From: Minutocellus sp. GHC0000111
Taxonomy: Eukaryota
NCBI GenBank assembly: GCA_977018835.1
Contig: OZ361256.1
Span: 5,084,001-5,148,000 of the forward strand
DNA: 64,000 nt
Direction: 5' to 3'
In this document: positions 50,949 through 63,932 of the stretch, piece after piece
How the letters are laid out: each line of letters begins with the position of its first letter
Position numbering within the stretch: the stretch's first letter is position 1
The notes under the pieces: model-generated
What the model saw: only the letters and a program-made list of their open reading frames with translations
What the model was told of the DNA's origin: nothing
The model's database searches: none
Position numbers and translations under genes: made by a program

Positions 50949-52277
50949 TTAAAGTCTCCAATCTCTCAGAAAGCGAAATGGCTCAGTGGGGACGTCGTAC
51001 TTCACAAGATCGGTGCTGTAGTATTCATCGAAGTTGCCACTGACGCTACTGGTGTGTCGTTCGAACGACATGGCAGTGAAAAGTCCCTTGACTCCAGGAA
51101 CTTTCTGGTCGCTGGATAGGAGCTTCATTTCAAATCGAACATCGTGCCAAGGGTGGCTCGCCCACACCGTGACATTGTGCTTGTGAATCTCATATCGTGC
51201 CCACAGAGCGTTCTTATCCTTCTCTCCTGTGAGAGTCATCTTCACAAACCGGGGCAGCATCTCGTGAGGTGGTGCGCTCGTCAGGGCATAGAGGACACGC
51301 CCGTCCTCCTTGAAATACATGTATCGATAGTATGCCGACTCGAGGATTGCCCCTACAGGAATCTCCGTCCACATATCCCTCTGAATCTTCTTCACCTTGG
51401 AGTACTTGAGCACATAGACGCCGCTGGTACGCACACGGGGACGAGTCTCGAGCATCTTGCGATACGACCCGCCGAATCGAGAGACATGCAGGGCCTTTCG
51501 CCGACTTTGGTTGAGATAGCACCGTTCGCAGAGTTTCTTGTACACAGCCTCTGTTCGGGTGAATGTCTTCCAATGAGGAGTGACGAGTGCCATGATGCCG
51601 TACGCATCAATATCGAGATAGGTCAAAACACGATGACTGAGCTCTTCTGGAAAGATAAGGAACGGCCCACCACGCTTGAGCAACTCTTCCTCGGTCTCTT
51701 CACTTTTATCTTCCTTTGCATTTCCATCTTCATCCAAACCAGTGCTTTTCAGATTGGCTTTGCCAGCAACAGCGTTGTTGGAATCTGTTTCTACGACGAC
51801 AGAATCCTCAGACGTAGTAGATGAATCATCATTGTCATCATCTACTTGCGAATCAGTGACCGATTGAGCATGTGGCTTTTCATCATCTTCGCTCTCATAA
51901 TGTTCCAATTGGCGCCGGGGATCATCTGCCGATCGCTCCGCTACCGTTGGCAATCCCCAATTTCGAGGATCAGCTTCTGCATCGTAGAGGATGGCACCAT
52001 CATAGGCATCGCCAGAAGTTGAAGAGGCCGCCCGTGCCACAGTTGTGGCTGCCGTGTCAATGCCACCGGTGCCGCCTGCGCTGGCAGATGTTGCCTTCGA
52101 AAGCGTCATGTATTCCTCAAACTCTCCGATCGATTTATGTCCGTAGCGATTGGCAATGTCCTTGCGCTCGCTATGGCCGAGCAGATGCCAGATCGGCCAC
52201 GTCAGCTCCCACGATGCTCCAGTATTTTCATTAACCAGGTAGATTGGACTTGGATCATCCGAGGATGTGCTGTCCAT
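50949..52277 (-). CDS. F-box protein, FBXO9/Hrt3-like
   Basis: F-box-like FPEELSHRVLTYLD...VTPHW, followed by RPRVRTSGVY and YYRYMYF..DG motifs. Confidence 0.8.
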   Translation of the reverse strand: MDSTSSDDPSPIYLVNENTGASWELTWPIWHLLGHSERKDIANRYGHKSIGEFEEYMTLSKATSASAGGTGGIDTAATTVARAASSTSGDAYDGAILYDAEADPRNWGLPTVAERSADDPRRQLEHYESEDDEKPHAQSVTDSQVDDDNDDSSTTSEDSVVVETDSNNAVAGKANLKSTGLDEDGNAKEDKSEETEEELLKRGGPFLIFPEELSHRVLTYLDIDAYGIMALVTPHWKTFTRTEAVYKKLCERCYLNQSRRKALHVSRFGGSYRKMLETRPRVRTSGVYVLKYSKVKKIQRDMWTEIPVGAILESAYYRYMYFKEDGRVLYALTSAPPHEMLPRFVKMTLTGEKDKNALWARYEIHKHNVTVWASHPWHDVRFEMKLLSSDQKVPGVKGLFTAMSFERHTSSVSGNFDEYYSTDLVKYDVPTEPFRFLRDWRL

Positions 52278-52423
52278 GCGTTCGGGAGCCGCCCTCGCTG
52301 CCGCCGAGGCTGCGTCCGATGTTTTCGCATTGGCTTCACCAGCTGCCGCCGAAGTTTCGTCGTCGTTATCGACATCGTCTTCGTCATTGATCGAAAGCTT
52401 GGTAAATGGGGTTTGAGGGAATT

Positions 52424-52679
52424 TAAAACTAACTAACTACTGAGAGAGAGAGAGACAGGCTCTGGGAGCCGGTACTGTAAGCTGACTTAGCAATTGCAAC
52501 GGCAGCAATCGCAGATGGTTGTGGCTTGGTCAGTTGAGACGAGAGGAGGCGAAGGTGGTGGTCAGCAGAAAAACTGGGCACTACAGGAATACAGTTTTAG
52601 TGCCTGCTGCTAACCACCGTCGCAGTGCCTGCTGCTAACCACCAACGCCAGCTCATCCCCACCGTGCGGCACCCACAAC
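52424..52679 (-). repeat. Terminal direct repeat (3' copy) with an internal 25-bp duplication
   Basis: Matches 60489-60719 except for four TA-site differences and a duplicated AGTGCCTGCTGCTAACCACC block. Confidence 0.95.
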
Positions 52680-52876
52680 GATGACACATCGAACACAGTA
52701 CCTCCCTCCGCTGATTCTCCCAACTCTATGCAACTTAGTAGAACATGAAATGCAGTTTAACTACGTGAACTGGAGCTGGCATTGGCGGTAAATGAAACTT
52801 CTTAGAGAGGGTGAGGTCCCTCTCCCCCTCCTCCTTTCCGTAGCTAGCACAGATCGGCCAACAATGTGTGTCGTGC

Positions 52877-54166
52877 TTAGGTGAACAGGGCGAAGGGGGG
52901 CATTGGAGTCCCGAAGCCGGCATTTCGGCCAATGCTGTTGATGCCGGCGAAGGATTGGCGGCAATTTGGGGTCCTTGGGTCTTCGCGATGGTGGCTCGTT
53001 GAGTGTGCGTGGGGGGCACGTTGAAGAAGGAACCTCGTTGGATCATGCGTGTGGAGACTCCGGATGTAAATTCTTGGACCTGGCGACGGATGCACTTGAG
53101 GAAGGCGTCACTGGACCACCGCCCTACCAGCATGATTGTGTACGTGGGAACATCATTTAGACACATTGCCATTGCTGCTCCGCTGCGAATGGAGTGTGAT
53201 CCGAATTCAGAGGGATGGCAGCCCAGGCAGGACGTCCTCTCCAATCACTGTGGCCGACGCTCGGATCTTGTCAACTGTTCGGGTGGCAGGAATGTGTTTT
53301 AATACGCCGTTGACCACGAAGGCATTTACCGGCGCATCGCTGTTGGCACTAGGGCACCCTAGGACTCGTTTCACCAGGGCAGCCCAAGCTCGAACTGGGC
53401 AGAGGGTGGCGTCGTGGGTGCAGTGTTGCGCAATCGTGACGTCACGCTCGTCGTTCTTCTGGAACTCAAAGGTGACGGAGACAGAGTCTGCTGAGAGGAG
53501 GGACCGGTCGTTGTGACACATGCGCCGTCGGCCGCGGTAGAACTGGATGTTGCGGAGGCGGAGCAGCTTGGTCCTGCGCTCACCGCTGACTCTGGAGTGT
53601 TCGCAAGACCTCATCGCGAAGAAGAAGAAGGCGCCGACGGCTAGTTGCCCGACTGCACGGTCCTCTTCCGTTTCCCTGACGGAGGCGATCTCTCGGAGGA
53701 GCCGGCAGGTGATCGCCTTCTCCGGCCGCTCGGCCGGGTCGGACTGGCTGTGTCCTCGGAACTGCCGCTGCAGAAGGAGTGAAGGCTGGCCGATGTCGTC
53801 TTTCCCTGGGTCCCTGCGCTGGTTGTGCCGGAAGAAGGGCGAGCGTGCACATGAGACGGTGTCTCGGACTGTCGACGCAGCCAGTCGCGAAAACTTTGGC
53901 CCCGAAAAGCTGGCCTGTCGGACGGCGTGGGCAAAGGCGCCGAGAATGACTGTTCGGTCTCGGGGTGACACCTTGTCGAGGAAGACGTCGTCCCCGGTCC
54001 CGATGAGCTGCAGGAACTCAGTCCAGCCGCTCCACGCGAGAGCGTGCTTCTCGGCAGTGGCCGTTGTGACTGCTTCCTGACGGGCAGCGACCGCGCCTGC
54101 GAGACAATCCAGGAAGCAATCTCGTTGGGAGGTGGTGCAATCCTGAAATTTGAGGGAAGCTGACAT
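52877..54166 (-). pseudogene. Tyrosine recombinase of the retroelement (frameshifted; catalytic Tyr>Cys)
   Basis: AMRSCE (R), HSIRSG (HxxR), GRWSSDAFLKCIR where Y is expected at C; frames change near 53225 and 53000. Confidence 0.9.
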
Positions 54167-56234
54167 TCGGGAGATGACAGAAGCAATTTCGTGAGGTCAG
54201 CATCAGAGAGATCGGTGTCACGAGAAAGAGAGTCGGCCTCCGGATTGCGCTTCCCCTGGAACCACTGTGAGTGCAGCATGGTGTTGGTCTCGATGAGTGT
54301 GCCGGCTAGTTTCCGCGCCGTGGCCAGCTTGACCGCTACGTCGGCATCCTTCTCGCCGTGAGACACGAAGTTCGACTTCCTGAGCCATCCCTCGGCCGTG
54401 GTGCTGTCGGTCCCCGACAGTGCGCAGGAGAGGGTTGGCAGGTTGCCCTCGATGTGGTCGATCCATGGGCCGATGACGGCGGCGAGGAACTCCAGGCAAT
54501 TGAGGGTGAACCGGCCCCACAGCTCCTCGGGGAGGGCAAATCTCCACGCTCTGCCGGATGAGGACCATCCGCCGATGCCGTGCTCGCAGGCGTCACTCAT
54601 GTGCTCGTGGGTGGGGCAACGGTGCGTGAGGAGGTTCATGCTCATGCCATCGGCGGCCCTTCGGAGGAAGCGGAGCCACAGGTTGAGGTCTTCTGCATCC
54701 TCAGAGTCAAACCGTTGGCGGCCGTGGCGGCGGGCCTTCCAGAGCCGATCCCGAAGGCGGCTGAGGAAGTGTCGTGCGGCTGGAATGATGTGTCCGACGT
54801 GGTTTAGCCTTCCGACCAAGGTGTCCAGCTCTGATCTGGTGGCGCCGCGGGCTCTGAGGAGCCGAAGCATGTCATCGCGCCAGGCCAGGCACTTGCTCCA
54901 AGGGAGCCTCAGTGGGAGCCGCCGGGTGTCAGCATCCCACCCCAAGAGACACAGTGCTTCGGAAGGCGTCCCCTCGGCGAGCAGCTTCTTGATGGAGGCA
55001 AGGTCATCTCTGGGCAGTGGCTCGCTGTCGGACACCGGTCGGCCAAGCGCGTGGATGGCGAGGAGGGTGGCAGCGGATGTCCGATCCTTGTTGTCGCCCA
55101 GGTCAGGGGCTGCGGCGATGAGGTCATCGATGCACGGCTCGACGATGCCATCCTTGTTGTCGGGAAGGGTTACGATCATGTCCAGGGCCGGCACGAACGG
55201 CACATCGTCGCCCTCCACCTTGGGGCGACCCAAGTGCTTCTGCTGGGGGCTATGGAGCTCTGACGGGTCCCAGTCCGAGCATTGCAGGAGGGCCCTGGCC
55301 AGGTCGGCCGCCGATTCGGATGCATTGCACCATTCGCTCGGGCAAGGGCGGCCGCCGAAAGTCAGCCGGAGGGACATGAGGGCAATGCCATCCAGGGTGG
55401 TGATCGTTTTGACGGCCGTGCTGGGAGCCAAGTGGGCCCGGCGACACGCAGCCTTGAAATCGACCTTCTGCAGGAGGATGGGAGTGCGGGGATGCTTGTG
55501 ACGGGCATCTACGATGTGGTGGATCACTCGCCGGAGGGCATGGCCGAACACCACTGGCTGGTGGTCCTCTCCATGCGCACTCTGTTGTTGACGGACCGTG
55601 CGGTGCCGATCTCGAAGGATTGGTCGTGAGTCAGGCGGTCCTTGGGCATGATCTCGCCAGCCTCGCTGATCGTGTTCTGTGCTGCCAAACCCATCGGAGC
55701 AACCTCCGCTCCAGGAATGAGGGGCGCGACCTTTGCTGGCAGAGGGAGGGCGAAACCGCGGGTCACGTCGTCGAGAACTTGGTCCTTGAGTGCCTCCGGC
55801 CTGTCCCTGGCCGATTTGTGGTTGCCTCGGCCGATGTTCTTTGTCACGCTGTCCAGTCTGCTTTCGTCGCTCACCGGATCGAGGGCCCAGTCGGATCCAC
55901 TGTCGAGAATGGAGCGGAAGCGGGGCCACAGCGGGTGCCGGCCAAGAATCGGCTCCAGAAGACTCAGGTCTCTGAACTCCGATCCCGGTTGGAGTGGCGA
56001 CCCGCCCTGCGCCTCGAGTGCCCTGCTCAGAGAACGATCGTGTTTCTTGAGGACCGACCAATTGTGAGCGGCGGCCTCCGTCAAGAGCTCAAATCTGAAC
56101 TCCGTGGGCTTCGGTGTGGCCGACGGGGACTCGACTGCCCGTCGGACGTGCTGTGCCAAGGTGGAAACATCAAAGATGGGCTCTAGTTCCCACGTGGAAT
56201 TGCACAAGGCGAGGAAAAGGTGAGACATGTGCAT
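53641..56234 (-). pseudogene. Reverse transcriptase-RNase H of the retroelement (frameshift near 55565; YIDD>CIDD)
   Basis: KDRLTHDQSF, DFKAACRR, LTFGGRPCP, CIDD, LGW, then RNase H SDAC, NCLEFLA, TDSTTA, NPEADSLSR. Confidence 0.92.
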
Positions 56235-56838
56235 GCTGCACGTTCACGAGCATGCGGGTCTGTCCCACCGTGGTGGGCCCATTGTGGGCGCTGGGCTGCC
56301 CCGTTTGTTGCAGGTGTTTCTTCACCTGTTCGTCTCACTTACCATTTTGGCGCATCGGTTCTGCTTCCTTGCTGTGCGTAGGGGAACCAGGGGGAGACTG
56401 TGCTTCGGGTTGGGGCTGCTTGCCTAGGAGATCCTTCTCTCGCTGGCCTAGCCGGTCGAAGAGGTTGTCGGTGGCTTCCGCACCGCCAGCGTCAGTGATG
56501 CTGGAGCCAGAGCCTGAGATGCTGTTGTCGGCGCAGGCATCACCGCTGGTGTTAGGGGGACCAGGACCCGACCGAAGGTCACTGCTAACGCCTCGGCCTT
56601 CTGCTCCGGTGTTAGGGGCACCGGAGAGCCTGGATTGGTTGCTGATGTCGTTGCGACCGCACACGCCGGATTTTGGGGTGCCGGACAACCTTGGGCGGCT
56701 GGAGCCACCGGGGCGGATCGACGCCGACGTGTCTGGCTGCACTCGACGGCGCTTGGAGGGACGAGCTCGGCCGGCTGGCCGAGATGTTTCTCCAGCATCC
56801 TCCGAGGGTGGGCCACGCCTCCGTGCCCACCCGATCCG

Positions 56839-58880
56839 TCATTCCTCCGCCTCCTCGTGCTTCCGATCGCATTTCTCGACGTGCTGCTCGACGGGTCCTC
56901 TCTCCGATGCCTTAAGAGGCCTCTTGACATGCGACTTCTTGAGCTTGCACGAGGATCCGGCGCCGCAGACACCTATCAGGATGAATGGAGGGCAGAATTT
57001 ACAGCCATTAATTTCAGGTCTGTCCTCATAGGGCTCGGATTTCTTGCCATGCCGTTTTGCAAAGTTGCCGGGGTTGACATCGAACGTGACGAAGTGTTCG
57101 CACTGGTGGGCTCTGCCGCTGGCGCCGCCCGTCTTTTGCTTCTTTTTCGGACTGGTTCTTGGCTCTGATTTGTCGGAGTCGGAATCCGAGGAAGGGGTGG
57201 GAGCGTCGGCCGATTGGACGAGCTTGATGTGGCTGGGGTAGACGAAAGGATTCTGAGTCTTCATCATCTTTTTGGACTCGTCGGCCATTGAGAAGCAAGA
57301 GAGGTCGTTGCCGGCGTCGTCGGGGGAACGGAGACAAGCTTTCCAGAATGCATGGATGGAGGCGTCGACATTGTGGAACATTGCCAGCCAGAACTTCTCG
57401 CCATGGCTCTCGGCGATGTCGCGGTGCTGGTCCTCGTGTGTCTTCATGTGACTGAGGACCCTGGCAACGTAGCGAGCGGGCAAGGAAGGAAATGCCAGCG
57501 CCGAAGGCCGAGATGTGACGTTTGGCACCGTCGTGCTCGGTTGGGGACCGGCAGTTCTGCTTCAGAAGAGCCTTCACCTGAGTCGAGGTGCATCCTTTCT
57601 CTTGAGAGGCGGCGAGGTGCAGGGGCGCATTGCTGCTGCTGGAGTTTACCGGGCTAAAGGCGAAGACAGAGAAGCCATCGCAGATTTTCTTGTCGCTCTT
57701 CCCGAAGCCAAAGAGGCGGACGCAAGTGGTGAGGCCCTGGAGAGATGTCCTGACTCCGGTCTTGCCCTTTACATGCAGCTCGAGGCCGACGGCTGCTTGC
57801 GTGAGGTTTGACTCTTCCAGCAGTGCTTTCAATCCTTCGGGAAGATTCGAGTCGATCGCTGCTGCATCATCGTCATGCTCGGTCGAGACCCGGCAGAAAG
57901 CGGCACAGGCCTTGAGGATGGCGCCATTCATCGAGTGCTTCTTGTCGACCTTGTCAGTGTAGGCCATGACTGCGCCGGTGAGGGAGGATGCTTCGGACGC
58001 GGCCCTAGTCATGGCGTTGGCCGCGGCAGCAACTAACTGCAGAGTCGGTCGGGGCGCCACCGGCTGGTGGTCCGTCGCCACTGGCGCCAGTGATGTGCCG
58101 AGCTTGCATCTCACGGGCGTGTCTCTTGAGAGCCGGGTCCGTCGTTGGGTGCAAGCTGACGGCCGGGATGTCACCTTGCTCGGACGTGGCGACGAACCAC
58201 AGCCACTTGACGACGTGTTGAACAGCCTCATTGGAGCGAAGACCTGCTGCGCCACCATGACCCTCGTCGTCACCGCTGTCTGATGCGTCGTCGCTGCCGG
58301 CGTCCTCATCCAGCCGACGTTTGATGGCGGACAGGATGGCCCAAGGCGATGCCTCGTGCTCTTCCAGAACATTCTGCAGAATCGAAGGTGGCAGCAGCAC
58401 AAGGGACTTAAACTTCGTGGAGGCACTCCGGTGGCGGGTGTTGGAGCCTTCCTGGGTGAGACCGGTTAGGGCGGCTTCTGACGGTGCCCCCAGCATGGCT
58501 TCCACCGATGGGGCTAGGACCTCCTTGCACCGCAAGAGGCTAGGTTGGGCCAACGACATTGCCGGGGCTACATCGTCGATCCCGAGGAGCCCACCCAACC
58601 TGAGGTCGGGCTGCATGGTGGTGCCTCCCTGAGCCACGGCATGGTGAATCACAACGACTTTCCCTTCTGGATGGTGGGCCAGCATGGACAAACCCTCGGC
58701 GTCGCGGATTTGCTGCTGGATCGCTCGGGCATGGCTCTGGACCACAGCGGCCGTGGGGTCGATTTCACAGACGTTGTCGGCGAGGAATCTCTGGAAATCT
58801 CGAGCTGCGGCGGCGTCGGCCCCGGCCGGCATCTCTTGTGCCAGTGGGACTGACTTCCAGGTGTTGAAAGATGAAGCCAT
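56839..58880 (-). pseudogene. gag-like ORF of the retroelement, frameshifted, with a C-terminal CCCH-like motif
   Basis: Overlapping ORFs 58005-58889, 57026-58426 and 56839-57528, ending in CPPFILIGVCGAGSSCKLKKSH just upstream of RT. Confidence 0.65.
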
Positions 58881-58896
58881 GGTGATCAATGCTCGA

Positions 58897-60480
58897 TCAC
58901 CTTGCCTGTCGCCTTCGGCGTCGGTCCTCTCGGCGCTGGATGTGGTTCAGATCGGCCGTGAGGGTGAGGATGCGGTCGGCGATGTCGGGCTCTCCAAAGG
59001 CGGACAGAAGGATGTTGAATGCCTGACGCGATGGCTCTGATGCCAAAATGTCGGCGGTGATGTCTCGCAGGCGGACAGGTGCCTCGAGATCGTCGGGGCG
59101 CCGGTGAATTGATGCTCTTGGCCAGACGCGGCAGTGGGCACCCTCCCAGCGATTTGGATCGGCCGCATCGTCTAGCCACCTCGGATAGACTCGATGGTAG
59201 GTGCCTGCCCAGCGGTGTGAGGGGGACGCCGTTAGGTCTGCCAGCCTTCCCCAGTGTTCGTACGGGTTGACCTCCACTCGGTGTCCAAGAGGATTGCTGT
59301 CAGGCCGAGTGTGTCGGAGTCGAGCGCTGGTGAGGCTCTCGAATCCACTGTCCCAGTTGATAACAGCTTCAGTGAGTTGGTCCGGTCGTAGGCACTGCCG
59401 TCTCTGGAACGGGTGCGGCGAATCCAGCGGGAACTGGGTGACCAGGGCGAAAGGGCCGATGAGATCTCCTCGCTCCAATGCCACACTGACGCCAGCCCGC
59501 TCGGTTCGGTCGTGTGCGTCACGTGGGTAGAAGAGTGGCCTTGCCTCCCACTCGAAACAAGTGAGCGGCAGCGTTGGTGGAAGCTCGCTCCCCCGTGAAC
59601 CTGTGCAAGCGTGCGGTGTCGGCTCTAGAGGTCTGCCCTCTCTGGCCGCGATGCGCCGTCTTTCTTTTCGGTCGGCCTGGCAGTGGAGGATGCACTGCGT
59701 GAGCCGGCAGAGCTGGGGCCAGATGCAATGGTGTTGCCGCGCTGCTGCTGCCGATGCCTCCGGACACCTTCGCCCCCGACACTGTTGAACCACGACGCCT
59801 CCGTCTGCCCGTGGTAGTCGGCACAGTGCACTGCTCAGGTCCAACTCAGTTGCCGTCTCGTGTGCCCGGCGGATCTCAGGCTCGGTGAGGCGCGTGGCTG
59901 TCAGCCAGATGTTGACGAGGCACGTGGGCCAGTCCGGTGACACCAAGAAGGCTTGTTGCTCGAGGTGCTCGGCGACCAGACCGTGCGCTGCTGGAGCAAG
60001 GTGTGAAACGGCTGCTGCTGGGGATGGCTGGCACCCCGTGGCTCTCGATGGGAGGCAGCCTGTGGCGCGCTCGACGAGATCGGTGAGGTGCTCGGTGACG
60101 TCGATTCGGCCCTCGGCAAAACTTTTCCACCAATCCAGTGCGTCTGTGGTCAGTCTCTCGGACGACGCCCTGGCTGTGAAGAAACTTCTGCGCCCGGGCC
60201 GAATCTGACGTCTGAGTCTGTCCCAGCCTCGTGGAAGGTCAGGAGAGTCTCCTCGGACGATGAGGTCTCTTGCCACTCCGAACAACACGTGATCCAGTTC
60301 CGGTCGATCTGGTTCGGCCATGCACTGTTCTGCCGTCGTAGAGACTGGTGGTGTCGGATCTACGTGCACTGTCAACGGAGCTGAGCCGTGGCCGTTTGAC
60401 TCCGGAGTCGACTGCGGTCTCTGGACTAACAGCAGTGGTGGTGTGTCGGCAACAATTGCGAACTCGCAGAGCAGCACCAA
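58897..60480 (-). CDS. Additional 5' ORF of unknown function inside the retroelement
   Basis: 527-codon frame between the 5' repeat and the gag-like ORF; first ATG at 60321. Confidence 0.5.
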   Translation of the reverse strand: MVLLCEFAIVADTPPLLLVQRPQSTPESNGHGSAPLTVHVDPTPPVSTTAEQCMAEPDRPELDHVLFGVARDLIVRGDSPDLPRGWDRLRRQIRPGRRSFFTARASSERLTTDALDWWKSFAEGRIDVTEHLTDLVERATGCLPSRATGCQPSPAAAVSHLAPAAHGLVAEHLEQQAFLVSPDWPTCLVNIWLTATRLTEPEIRRAHETATELDLSSALCRLPRADGGVVVQQCRGRRCPEASAAAARQHHCIWPQLCRLTQCILHCQADRKERRRIAAREGRPLEPTPHACTGSRGSELPPTLPLTCFEWEARPLFYPRDAHDRTERAGVSVALERGDLIGPFALVTQFPLDSPHPFQRRQCLRPDQLTEAVINWDSGFESLTSARLRHTRPDSNPLGHRVEVNPYEHWGRLADLTASPSHRWAGTYHRVYPRWLDDAADPNRWEGAHCRVWPRASIHRRPDDLEAPVRLRDITADILASEPSRQAFNILLSAFGEPDIADRILTLTADLNHIQRREDRRRRRQAR

Positions 60481-60488
60481 CCTAATGC

Positions 60489-60719
60489 TAAAACTAACTA
60501 ACTACTGAGAGAGAGAGAGACAGGCTCTGGGAGCCGGCACTGCAAGCTGACTTAGCAATTGCAACGGCAGCAATCGCAGATGGTTGTGGCTTGGTCAGTT
60601 GAGACGAGAGGAGGCGAAGGTGGTGGTCAGCAGAAAAACTGGGCACTACAGGAATGCAGTTTTAGTGCCTGCTGCTAACCACCGTCGCCAGCTCATCCCC
60701 ACCGTGCGGTGCCCACAAC
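60489..60719 (-). repeat. Terminal direct repeat (5' copy)
   Basis: 231 bp, matching 52424-52679. Confidence 0.95.
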
Positions 60720-61162
60720 CTCCTTCGTTTCGGAGATCGGCGCAAGCCCTCCACCGGCACTGGACCGGTCGCCTGTCCTTTTGGTCATGTCGACGAGCTA
60801 CCAGCGTAATGGCAACGGCAAGGAGGAAGGGTTGGTGGGGGTGTGCGATAACGAGGTTAGCTGAAGTGGTAGGTTTCGACGCATTTGCCGAGCACCATGG
60901 TGCAATTAATGCGTGCTGCACAGACACTGAGGCCATTCTGGCTGAGTTCTGAGCTGGTGAACGTCTGTCAGTCTTCCGGGGTGGCTACTTTGCTGACTTC
61001 ACGAAAGTTGCTGCTGCCGCGAAGAAGCGGCAAGCAACATAACAAAGCAAAGGGAAGAAATCTAATCGAATCTCCGCTATTGCCGTGAGAGGGCTGAAGT
61101 GCCGCGGCAGCAACAACAAGGGAAGAAATCTAACAAATCGAACCTTTGCATATGCGCTAGCC

Positions 61163-62074: not shown

Positions 62075-63932
62075 CGAAGTCGTTTCGCGAGAAATCGAGC
62101 GCAGGGTCGGGACCAAAACAGCGACTTTTTGGGCCCGCAACCGCCTGAATCTTAGATCTACCGGCATTGAATACATGTACAATGCAAAGTACATGTATTG
62201 CAGCAGCTAGTATCCAGATCTACAATCCAATCTAGTATTATTAAACACAATATAACTTAAAAGCACCGCAGGACTAATTATCCATGGTTGGATCAGCAGG
62301 AGGAGGAGCGATAATTTTCCCATCTATCCGAACCATGCCATTTTCAGTCGGCCTGAAATCCTTTCGCACCCCAACATGAATGCCTTCACCGTTTCCAAGA
62401 AAATCATTGTTGCCTTTTGCAACGATTACCTTCTTTGCAATTCTATGAGCCTGGATGTATGCCGATGCGATCTTCCAGTTTTCCAGCCCCATCCAAACTT
62501 CCTCCGCTGCATCCCAAGTCTGATCCTCTGTCAAAACCTTCAGCCCCTCCCGATCGCGGCACAACATTGTATGCTGCTTTGACATGCAAGGGAAAACAGA
62601 CAGATCAAGAACATTCATATGGGGCATTTGCGGGGCCTGAGGTTCCCAACGCCATCCCTTGTCCCGACAGTATCCTTCCACATATTCCACAAATTCAGTC
62701 TCGGCATGGGGCCCAGCATTGTCGCCCTGGAAAATAGGGACATAGCCTTCAAACTTTCCACCAGGTCCGACCAAAGCCTCAACATCCGGAAACATCTTGT
62801 TCTCAAATAAAGCTTTCAGTGGGAACTTGGGATTATCAAGGGTGCCATGGCTGCATCCAGTCACCGCGCAATCCACAAGGTGTAGATCGTCTTTCTTCCG
62901 AACCACCGGGCCGCAATATTTGATTCTACCATCTGCCTGCCGCACCGCCTCCCTTACCATCTGCCTCGCAATTTTATGCGCCTGAGCCCGAAAAAGTCCA
63001 AGCTTGAACGCAATGCCGCCATTCTCAATGCTGTCAATAAAAGCCAAGGCAGTGACAGCCACCACCATGCACTTGTTGATGTGATTTCGGTGATATGCCG
63101 AGAAGGACCGAGGATCAATACCCAATTCTGCAACTTGCTTGGCATGCGATCGAAGAACCAAGCCCCAAAACCACTTCTCATCGAACATAACAAGGAGAAA
63201 CTTGCCACCGCCGAGCCCCCAATTGTTTCGGAATTTCCGCGCAAATGCCAAATGTTTCTCCATCTGATGTGTAGTAAGGAGAGGGATGATCCTTTCGGCA
63301 TAGTACCGGAACCCTTCCCGCGACATTATCCACCGCCGTATTGCCGAGTAGGAACACCAAAAGTTGACATCCACCTCCAGCTCCCGCCAAGATTCCCGAG
63401 GATTTCGTATCAGAGCATCAACAATAACATCTCGAATGTATGGCTGCATAGCCAGATGAGATCTCCTCTTCATCTCCCACATCGCCTTCTCAGATGCAGG
63501 TAGAGCACCATACGCCTTCATCCATCCCGAAAATCGTGCACCATGCTCTGCGCTGGACAGCACCGAATAGTCCACCTTTGCCTGCTCCCTGCACTTGGCA
63601 ATTGCAAAGAGACATGGTGCAGTATACCGCCGGGTCGCCGTTGCAAGATCGTCGATGACAGAACGGAAGGCGGCCGAATCAGATGAATCATCGGCACTCG
63701 TTGGGAAGCAGTATGCCGGTCCAACCAAGTGCGACGAACGCGTCCATTTGATTAGAGCCGCTGAAATCTAAAGTCTTATCCGAATTATTGTTTCACATGA
63801 AGATAAATCAAAATTAGAGTAAAAATAGCCATTTTCTTAAATATTTCAGCATGACTATTCTTCGAGGCTCTTTTCAATCCCCTCGAAAGCAGTCAAAAAC
63901 CGGGCGCTCGATTTCTCGCGAATCTGACCTCG
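62075..63932 (-). mobile_element. Tc1/mariner-superfamily DNA transposon, internally deleted, with TA target duplication
   Basis: TA|CGAAGTCGTTTCGCGAGAAATCGAGCGC ... GCGCTCGATTTCTCGCGAATCTGACCTCG|TA, an imperfect TIR of about 29 bp. Confidence 0.92.
62274..63728 (-). CDS. Mariner-type transposase, DD38D triad, 5' end missing
   Basis: FDEKWF, QGDNAGPH and PHMNVLDLSVF, with 38 residues between the second and third Asp. No ATG between the upstream stop (63768-63770) and the track's TTG start. Confidence 0.88.
   Translation of the reverse strand: MVGPAYCFPTSADDSSDSAAFRSVIDDLATATRRYTAPCLFAIAKCREQAKVDYSVLSSAEHGARFSGWMKAYGALPASEKAMWEMKRRSHLAMQPYIRDVIVDALIRNPRESWRELEVDVNFWCSYSAIRRWIMSREGFRYYAERIIPLLTTHQMEKHLAFARKFRNNWGLGGGKFLLVMFDEKWFWGLVLRSHAKQVAELGIDPRSFSAYHRNHINKCMVVAVTALAFIDSIENGGIAFKLGLFRAQAHKIARQMVREAVRQADGRIKYCGPVVRKKDDLHLVDCAVTGCSHGTLDNPKFPLKALFENKMFPDVEALVGPGGKFEGYVPIFQGDNAGPHAETEFVEYVEGYCRDKGWRWEPQAPQMPHMNVLDLSVFPCMSKQHTMLCRDREGLKVLTEDQTWDAAEEVWMGLENWKIASAYIQAHRIAKKVIVAKGNNDFLGNGEGIHVGVRKDFRPTENGMVRIDGKIIAPPPADPTMDN

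Follow-up and report, generated by a model that had tools for sequence, protein, structure and literature searches.

TpA-directed A:T to G:C change in retrotransposons and DNA transposons of a diatom, with an adenine deaminase as the candidate agent

We analysed a 64,000-nt stretch of the genome of the diatom Minutocellus sp. GHC0000111 (contig OZ361256.1, positions 5,084,001 to 5,148,000; hereafter the window). Among named relatives of its choline-transporter gene, Odontella (51%) and Helicotheca (49%) come first, in keeping with a diatom host. The window contains an Ngaro-type tyrosine-recombinase retrotransposon of ~8.3 kb, dozens of copies of which appear to have each lost most of their TpA steps independently. 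Considered together with similar changes in Tc1-like DNA transposons, the data suggest independent changes directed at 5'-TAY (Y, pyrimidine) in both transposon classes by a host mutator, most likely a deaminase of the TadA/ADAT type. We judge this combined reading about as probable as all others taken together. Natural A-to-G editing of genomic DNA has been thought rare enough that base editors were evolved in the laboratory, and the sole report we found of genomic TpA hypermutation is a 2026 preprint on the viral inserts of an alga of the Rhizaria. That signature, found in a diatom and in both transposon classes, would mean a wider eukaryotic genome defence that runs in the opposite direction from repeat-induced point mutation (RIP) and CpG decay.

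The window copy of the retrotransposon is strongly depleted in TpA. An earlier note, made from the letters of this DNA, had counted about 7 TpA steps in positions 54001-56220; there are exactly 7, an observed/expected ratio (o/e) of 0.09 (P = 6e-13 given the host value of 0.61). Within the window, host segments of the same length (2220 bp) have a minimum o/e of 0.42 and a median of 0.60, and GC-matched host segments (n = 16, GC at least 0.58) range from 0.46 to 0.73; host genes are spared, with an o/e of 0.61 and no segment below 0.42. The TA o/e is 0.28 over 52424-60719 and 0.20 over 53001-60400. CpA/TpG is raised in the element (o/e 1.22), CpG has an o/e of 0.89 and AA an o/e of 1.0. The predicted reverse transcriptase-RNase H lacks tyrosine, as the note had said: the pol open reading frame (ORF) at 53641-56088 has 0 Tyr in 815 aa, compared with 2.1-6.0% Tyr in host ORFs. 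The motifs CIDD (TGC, 55132-55134), FLKCIR (TGC, 53092-53094), AACRR, RSCEHS and MLHSQW all read as claimed. Two related statements hold in part. The position of Tyr in YxDD is conserved, with Tyr or Phe in 110 of 111 non-sister relatives and His in one, so Tyr itself is not invariant. The recombinase Tyr position is Cys in the window copy and still TAC in the dominant contig of sequencing runs X1, X5 and X6 (53093 C>T); we take 53092-53094 to be the nucleophile codon from the pattern HxxR...GRW...Y.

Contigs of runs X1 and X5 contain the empty insertion site (joint 52408|60719), indicating that the insertion is polymorphic, but contigs cannot tell whether X1 also has the filled allele. The left flank (51500-52408) has no differences from the empty allele in X1 over 909 bp, a distance that includes ~24 TA steps.

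The direction of change was set by comparison with relatives. Sister copies from the first search (n = 9, 93-96% identity) have 0-2 Tyr in the aligned region, and non-sister relatives (n = 111) all have 4-17. In the relative cluster P0006, Tyr is kept in 91 of 91 cases, and five related metagenome elements have a pol TA o/e of 0.53-0.70. Given relatives with Tyr or Phe and normal TA o/e, the ancestor was TA-normal.

A set of 48 sister fragments (the 9 from the first search plus 39 more) was compared copy by copy; at least two of the fragments are the same copy, and 16 of the 31 members of one cluster, absent from the matches listed, lie outside the set. Across 841 columns with at least 6 copies, 47 were common polymorphic columns, defined as having two residues each in at least 3 copies. 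The alternatives are those of TA, TG and CA in 43 of the 47, although such alternatives are possible in just 338 of the 841. At the first position of YIDD there are 31 His, 6 Cys and 1 Tyr, and the copy with Tyr is mutated elsewhere. No fragment keeps all of its covered Tyr-type sites, short pieces excepted. Two results that the note had named as telling against it, a Tyr-free sequence shared among copies and substitutions not enriched at TpA, were thus not observed: the copies differ, and they differ at TpA. Residues that require CG occur at 2 of the 47 common polymorphic columns, which argues that CpG decay is not their source. In the same copies CpG decay is modest, with C>T at 4.1 per 1000 at CG versus 1.6 elsewhere.

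Linkage between sites is absent: mean r2 is 0.051 versus 0.053 +/- 0.003 in shuffled data, and four gametes occur in 454 of 556 site pairs versus 449 +/- 11. The copies thus acquired their mutations independently, each from a template rich in TA. We counted 58 TA, 189 TG and 208 CA at 19 sites (14 Tyr, 5 Ile), chosen because all three states can be read there. Both TG and CA are present in 43 of 43 copies with at least 4 mutated sites, and there are no strand runs at any distance.

Short reads were used to address artefact. Two runs are Illumina RNA (X11 and X15), and X5 and X17 are of unrecorded library type. In 54760-55560, 27 of 27 variable places across the contigs of these four runs are transitions, 24 of them at TA/TG/CA steps and 3 at CpG. 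Illumina RNA run X11 carries HIDD, and the alleles listed for that codon include none with TA alone. Copies are merged in contigs and infrequent alleles are lost, so that an intact but rare copy could be missed; RNA libraries may also contain DNA. Over the whole element, the best 40 of 126 variant rows represent 33 events, of which 12 have TG or CA in the window copy versus TA in the reads, 1 has TA in the window copy versus TG or CA in the reads, 5 are swaps between TG and CA, and 15 are others. The note had allowed that accurate short reads might restore TA at these sites; this was not observed, as Illumina contigs themselves carry TG and CA alleles. The loss of TpA is real, and base-calling artefact is rejected.

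More broadly, an origin in base-calling error on modified DNA, CpG deamination or intrinsic TA poverty is scarcely credible. TG/CA pairs can also derive from CG, and the assembly copies are rich in insertions and deletions (indels). However, the Illumina contigs carry both TG and CA alleles, the outgroups have Tyr and not Arg, the CG o/e of the element is 0.9, and the relatives have normal TA. An artefact would survive only in the form of a modified base that all polymerases read as G, which describes inosine itself. We therefore reject base-calling artefact, CpG decay as main cause and intrinsic TA poverty on the Illumina alleles, the outgroup Tyr and the TA o/e of relatives.

The window also contains a Tc1-like DNA transposon, whose protein cluster has 146 members. 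At two columns this copy reads His in place of the Tyr found in the majority of copies. In its family (42 members, 13 Tyr columns) the 334 cells comprise 312 Tyr, 13 Cys, 8 His and 1 Arg, and one copy has lost Tyr at 9 of 10. Of at least three further Tc1 families assigned to the same assembly, three (15 members each among the matches listed) have Cys or His in 16 of 142, 56 of 161 and 21 of 70 cells, and columns for Phe, Trp, Asp and Lys retain their residue at 98-100%. Controls from other sources have Cys or His in 1 of 129 cells in one family and 0 of 91 in a related retrotransposon. In a family mostly from elsewhere, the sole changed member (P0390, 4 of 10) is assigned to the assembly of the window species. 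Since Tc1 families have no RNA stage and are changed likewise, the process acts at the level of DNA and is not tied to reverse transcription.

The Tc1 result bears most directly on whether the changes arise during retrotransposition from an intact, persisting master, through RNA or cDNA editing or through bias in the reverse transcriptase. The star-like independence of the copies, the sharp edge at the insertion and the near saturation of an insertion-polymorphic copy would all be expected of such a process. Tc1 elements with the same TAY-directed change largely refute it, the RNA contigs carry sense-strand T>C alleles (HIDD) and not an intact master, and TAG, the favourite of ADAR and of fungal mRNA editing, is the TA context that survives in the element. 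ADAR-type editing of retroelement RNA leaves one-strand A>G tracts, favours UAG and needs an RNA intermediate; here both strands are changed in every one of the 43 copies and DNA transposons are changed too. RNA-stage editing as sole cause is rejected on the Tc1 data, and we consider any retrotransposition-stage origin very unlikely.

Context counts point to a motif longer than TpA. In the sister copies TA is kept in 6 of 336 cells at RTAY (R, purine), and in 52 of 119 cells with one TAY. TA steps per kb in the window copy versus host DNA are 3.0 versus 4.8 for YTAR and 0.14 versus 12.0 for RTAY. At sites with TAY on a single strand, the A with a 3' pyrimidine was the one changed by 52 to 15 (p 6e-6). 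In Tc1 the changes fall at 44 of 1073 TAY cells versus 1 of 308 TAR cells. Rare off-motif A>G in the retrotransposon has the same 3' bias (33 of 8423 with a pyrimidine versus 6 of 9250), and 5' C is also preferred. The target is judged from these counts to be 5'-TAY, best RTAY. Saturation at RTAY implies ~4 hits per site, versus 1.6 per 1000 for non-CpG C>T, and as a historical ratio the mutation excess over background may be roughly thousandfold.

These contexts also bear on an error-prone repair polymerase (polymerase-eta-like, placing G opposite template T) that would fill gaps in methylated silent DNA, making this the same transposon-confined, DNA-level process with another agent. Transitions that affect either strand and single sites would be expected of such a polymerase, and the modest CpG decay and many 2-4-nt indels in the same copies show repair activity. 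The signature of polymerase eta is WA>WG (W, A or T), with AA mutated substantially. By contrast, AA is spared here, with A>G changes at 6 of 3005 for the retrotransposon and at 6 of 3254 for Tc1 (~2 per 1000 in both families, in line with the normal AA o/e), and the strong 3'-pyrimidine rule is outside that signature. A repair polymerase is thus unlikely, while deserving some weight.

We propose that a host mutator restricted to transposon DNA would make the A:T>G:C changes at 5'-TAY, on both strands and once an element has inserted. A TadA/ADAT-type deaminase would turn adenine to inosine, to be copied as G, possibly one site at a time in repeated rounds on chromosomal DNA, spread over numerous generations and at ~1000x background. 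Targeting may be via silent chromatin or small RNA, and the purpose may be defence. The central claim of the earlier note, a TpA-specific, both-strand A:T>G:C change aimed at transposons, finds support in the mutation spectrum, in the presence of both strands' products in 43 of 43 copies and in Tc1.

Alternatively, the changed base may be T and not A. A TET/JBP-type enzyme would mark T in RTA steps, and the oxidised base would mispair with G, resulting in T>C. Thymine hydroxylation in repeats is known from other protists, and because A>G in TAY is T>C in RTA as a duplex event, all counts fit equally. The YAY-like hierarchy, however, matches published TadA preferences, and we hold thymine modification to be improbable. 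A TadA/ADAT-type deaminase is the candidate best guess for the agent, with roughly even chances of being correct, because the adenine base editor ABE7.10 favours 5'-YAY (PMC10188366) and an ABE8e variant prefers YAY to YAR (PMC12528748). Such TadA-derived editors resemble the proposed agent in making A>G changes in DNA with YAY favoured; they differ in being engineered and guide-targeted.

Several points weigh against the deaminase reading or the comparisons behind it. That the sister fragments come from one assembly of the window species is an assumption, and their comparison at the protein level hides silent changes. Outgroup support is weak at some three-state sites (56150, 53970 and 54891). 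There is weak activity at CAY in the retrotransposon (24 of 6568 at CA versus 15 of 11105 at RA), and Tc1 has 0 of 1529 at CAY. The process has not stopped Tc1, most copies of which are close to intact, with mutated states shared among some of them. From sequence, an A>G change looks the same as T>C on the opposite strand. Finally, amphioxus ADAT2/3 also makes A>G changes in DNA, yet this natural DNA-editing ADAT2 prefers GAA and TCG, together with hairpins, and not TAY (PMC10354150).

The earlier note stated that no pathway of this kind had been described, which is wrong: TpA>TpG/CpA hypermutation is reported in Bigelowiella natans (Mettrop et al., bioRxiv 10.64898/2026.01.13.699255). In mutation-accumulation lines described there, two viral inserts acquired 231 mutations, of which 230 are A>G or T>C and lie without exception at TpA, and the ongoing chromosomal rate is ~1000x background, in some lines only. 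The inserts are integrated nucleocytoplasmic large DNA virus (NCLDV) and virophage DNA, domains of transposable elements (TEs) are enriched among TpA-poor genes, and an adenosine deaminase (ADAT2) is proposed, unproven. Both processes make A:T>G:C changes in chromosomal DNA, on either strand and almost solely at TpA, and both are limited to DNA that is foreign or mobile. The hosts differ, a rhizarian there and a diatom (stramenopile) here, as does the material, viral inserts there and here transposons of classes I and II, present in many copies that were compared with one another. The o/e of 0.09 in the diatom element is near saturation, versus 0.45 in the B. natans NCLDV insert. We describe a TAY/RTAY sub-motif, and the words 'trinucleotide', 'flanking' and 'diatom' do not occur in the main text of the preprint; ongoing rates were measured there and are inferred here. 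On sequence signature the diatom process appears to be of the same kind as that of B. natans, the new features being the diatom host, both transposon classes, near saturation and the TAY motif. No report of TpA hypermutation in a diatom was found in our literature search, which was not exhaustive and left subscription journals largely outside.

Whatever the chemistry, the changes could be a by-product of silent chromatin (e.g., lost repair of spontaneous damage) and not a selected defence. Consistent with this, most Tc1 copies keep most Tyr codons, and in B. natans viral inserts of single copy and TE-like genes are affected alike. The ~4 hits per RTAY site versus 1.6 per 1000, the tight motif and the clean 909-bp flank, on the other hand, need an active sequence-specific agent, and the lack of an intact copy among the 48 sister fragments, short pieces aside, also counts against passive damage. 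We regard a by-product as improbable too, and marginally more so than thymine modification.

Like RIP of ascomycetes, the process ruins the copies of a repeat individually, through transitions at a particular dinucleotide. RIP, however, makes C:G>T:A changes that create TpA; here TpA is lost, CpA/TpG is raised, and there are no strand-coordinated tracts. Diatoms have a RID-related DNMT4 of unknown function (PMC9998398).

A broader possibility, to which we give somewhat less than an even chance, is that diatoms, and perhaps much of SAR (stramenopiles, alveolates and Rhizaria), have a dedicated natural DNA adenine deaminase that is steered to transposon chromatin, reads 5'-RTAY and saturates both transposon classes soon after insertion. 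If true, the diatom deaminase would mirror RIP, and the engineered adenine base editors would have an equivalent in nature. The motif, combined with Tyr>Cys/His as an assay in transposon copies, may provide a handle for the enzyme search, and CRISPR knock-outs work in diatoms. Consensus sequences of such families would be chimeric and dead, and GC-rich repeats can stem from mutation and not gene conversion.

The retrotransposon is placed among Ngaro-type elements (order DIRS) on its layout and enzyme content. The Ngaro layout has split direct repeats, A1-[ORFs]-B1A2B2 (PMC8547959). The element shares with Ngaro retrotransposons the split direct repeats, reverse transcriptase-RNase H, overlapping tyrosine recombinase and lack of a target-site duplication, none being present at insertion junctions 52408/60719. 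The window copy differs in lacking B2 and in being broken by frameshifts and TpA changes; in other copies (contigs of X1 and X5), joints from B1 to 52409 occur at 52806/52807. The empty-site joint corrects the span of 52424..60719 given in the earlier note to 52409-60718. The insertion splits an F-box gene ~23 codons past its ATG, and the empty site restores one continuous frame (Table 1).

Table 1. Features of the retrotransposon, its insertion site and the Tc1-like transposon (positions in the window)
Feature	Position	Strand	Basis or remark
Ngaro-type tyrosine-recombinase retrotransposon, TpA-hypermutated	52409..60718	-	empty-site joint in runs X1, X5
5' direct repeat A1	60489..60718	-	repeat comparison
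3' direct repeat A2	52424..52679	-	repeat comparison; three TA steps kept, lost in A1
Repeat B1	52680..52806	-	recurs beyond A2 (as B2) in other copies
pol: predicted reverse transcriptase-RNase H, frameshifted, Tyr-free, catalytic motif CIDD	53641..56243	-	fold of relative P0006
Predicted tyrosine recombinase ORF, frameshifted, overlaps pol end	52735..54196	-	Atlas look-alikes; predicted nucleophile codon 53092-53094
5' coding region (expected gag-like ORF1), several broken frames, TA-depleted	56839..60501	-	reading frames
Host F-box gene (FBO_C domain), 3' part	50949..52408	-	Pfam PF19270, E 7e-13
Host F-box gene, first 70 nt of reading frame	60719..60788	-	continuous frame at empty site
Tc1-like DNA transposon, 24-nt inverted ends, lightly mutated at TpA	62084..63922		TA o/e 0.56

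The enzyme assignments come largely from structure and profile comparisons. The predicted model of P0006, a 69%-identical relative, matches retroviral and Ty3 reverse transcriptase-RNase H structures in a fold search (best E 1.2e-9). Pfam gave no match for the element's ORFs or for 23 relatives, and a PDB sequence search with a 60-sequence profile gave none for its reverse transcriptase. A tyrosine recombinase, and not a DDE integrase, is suggested by Atlas look-alikes (0.94-0.96) with Phage_integrase or Phage_int_SAM, a method at the level of leads. The 5' coding region has no Pfam or usable Atlas match, and a search of a viral contig collection found no relative.

The two direct repeats differ by 4 substitution events (TA/CA twice, TA/TG and CA/TG), all among TA, TG and CA. 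A 25-nt tandem duplication is present within the 3' repeat (52600-52650) and absent from the 5' repeat. The 3' kilobase of the element is less mutated than the body, with 5 RTAY in 992 bp versus 1 in 7000 bp (p = 1.6e-4). In 52409-53400 the window copy and most others keep many TA steps of the sensitive kind, and most copies retain the recombinase Tyr codon; we offer no explanation for this. Contig depth is lower over the 3' kilobase in two RNA runs, which we do not use as evidence, as depth cannot rank parts and the libraries may contain DNA.

Compared with the dominant contigs, the window copy has private 2-4-nt insertions at 52841, 52989, 53011, 53224, 53618, 55567, 58031, 58252 and 60346. 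Sister copies are often frameshifted as well, and such small insertions could be assembly errors or repair scars. A 35-nt stretch (55212-55246) is alone shared with an unrelated long contig in X1, X5, X6 and X11, with loose ends on both sides. Just outside the element there may be a heterozygous indel, as 39 bases are skipped at 60873-60913 at roughly half the depth in X1 and X5.

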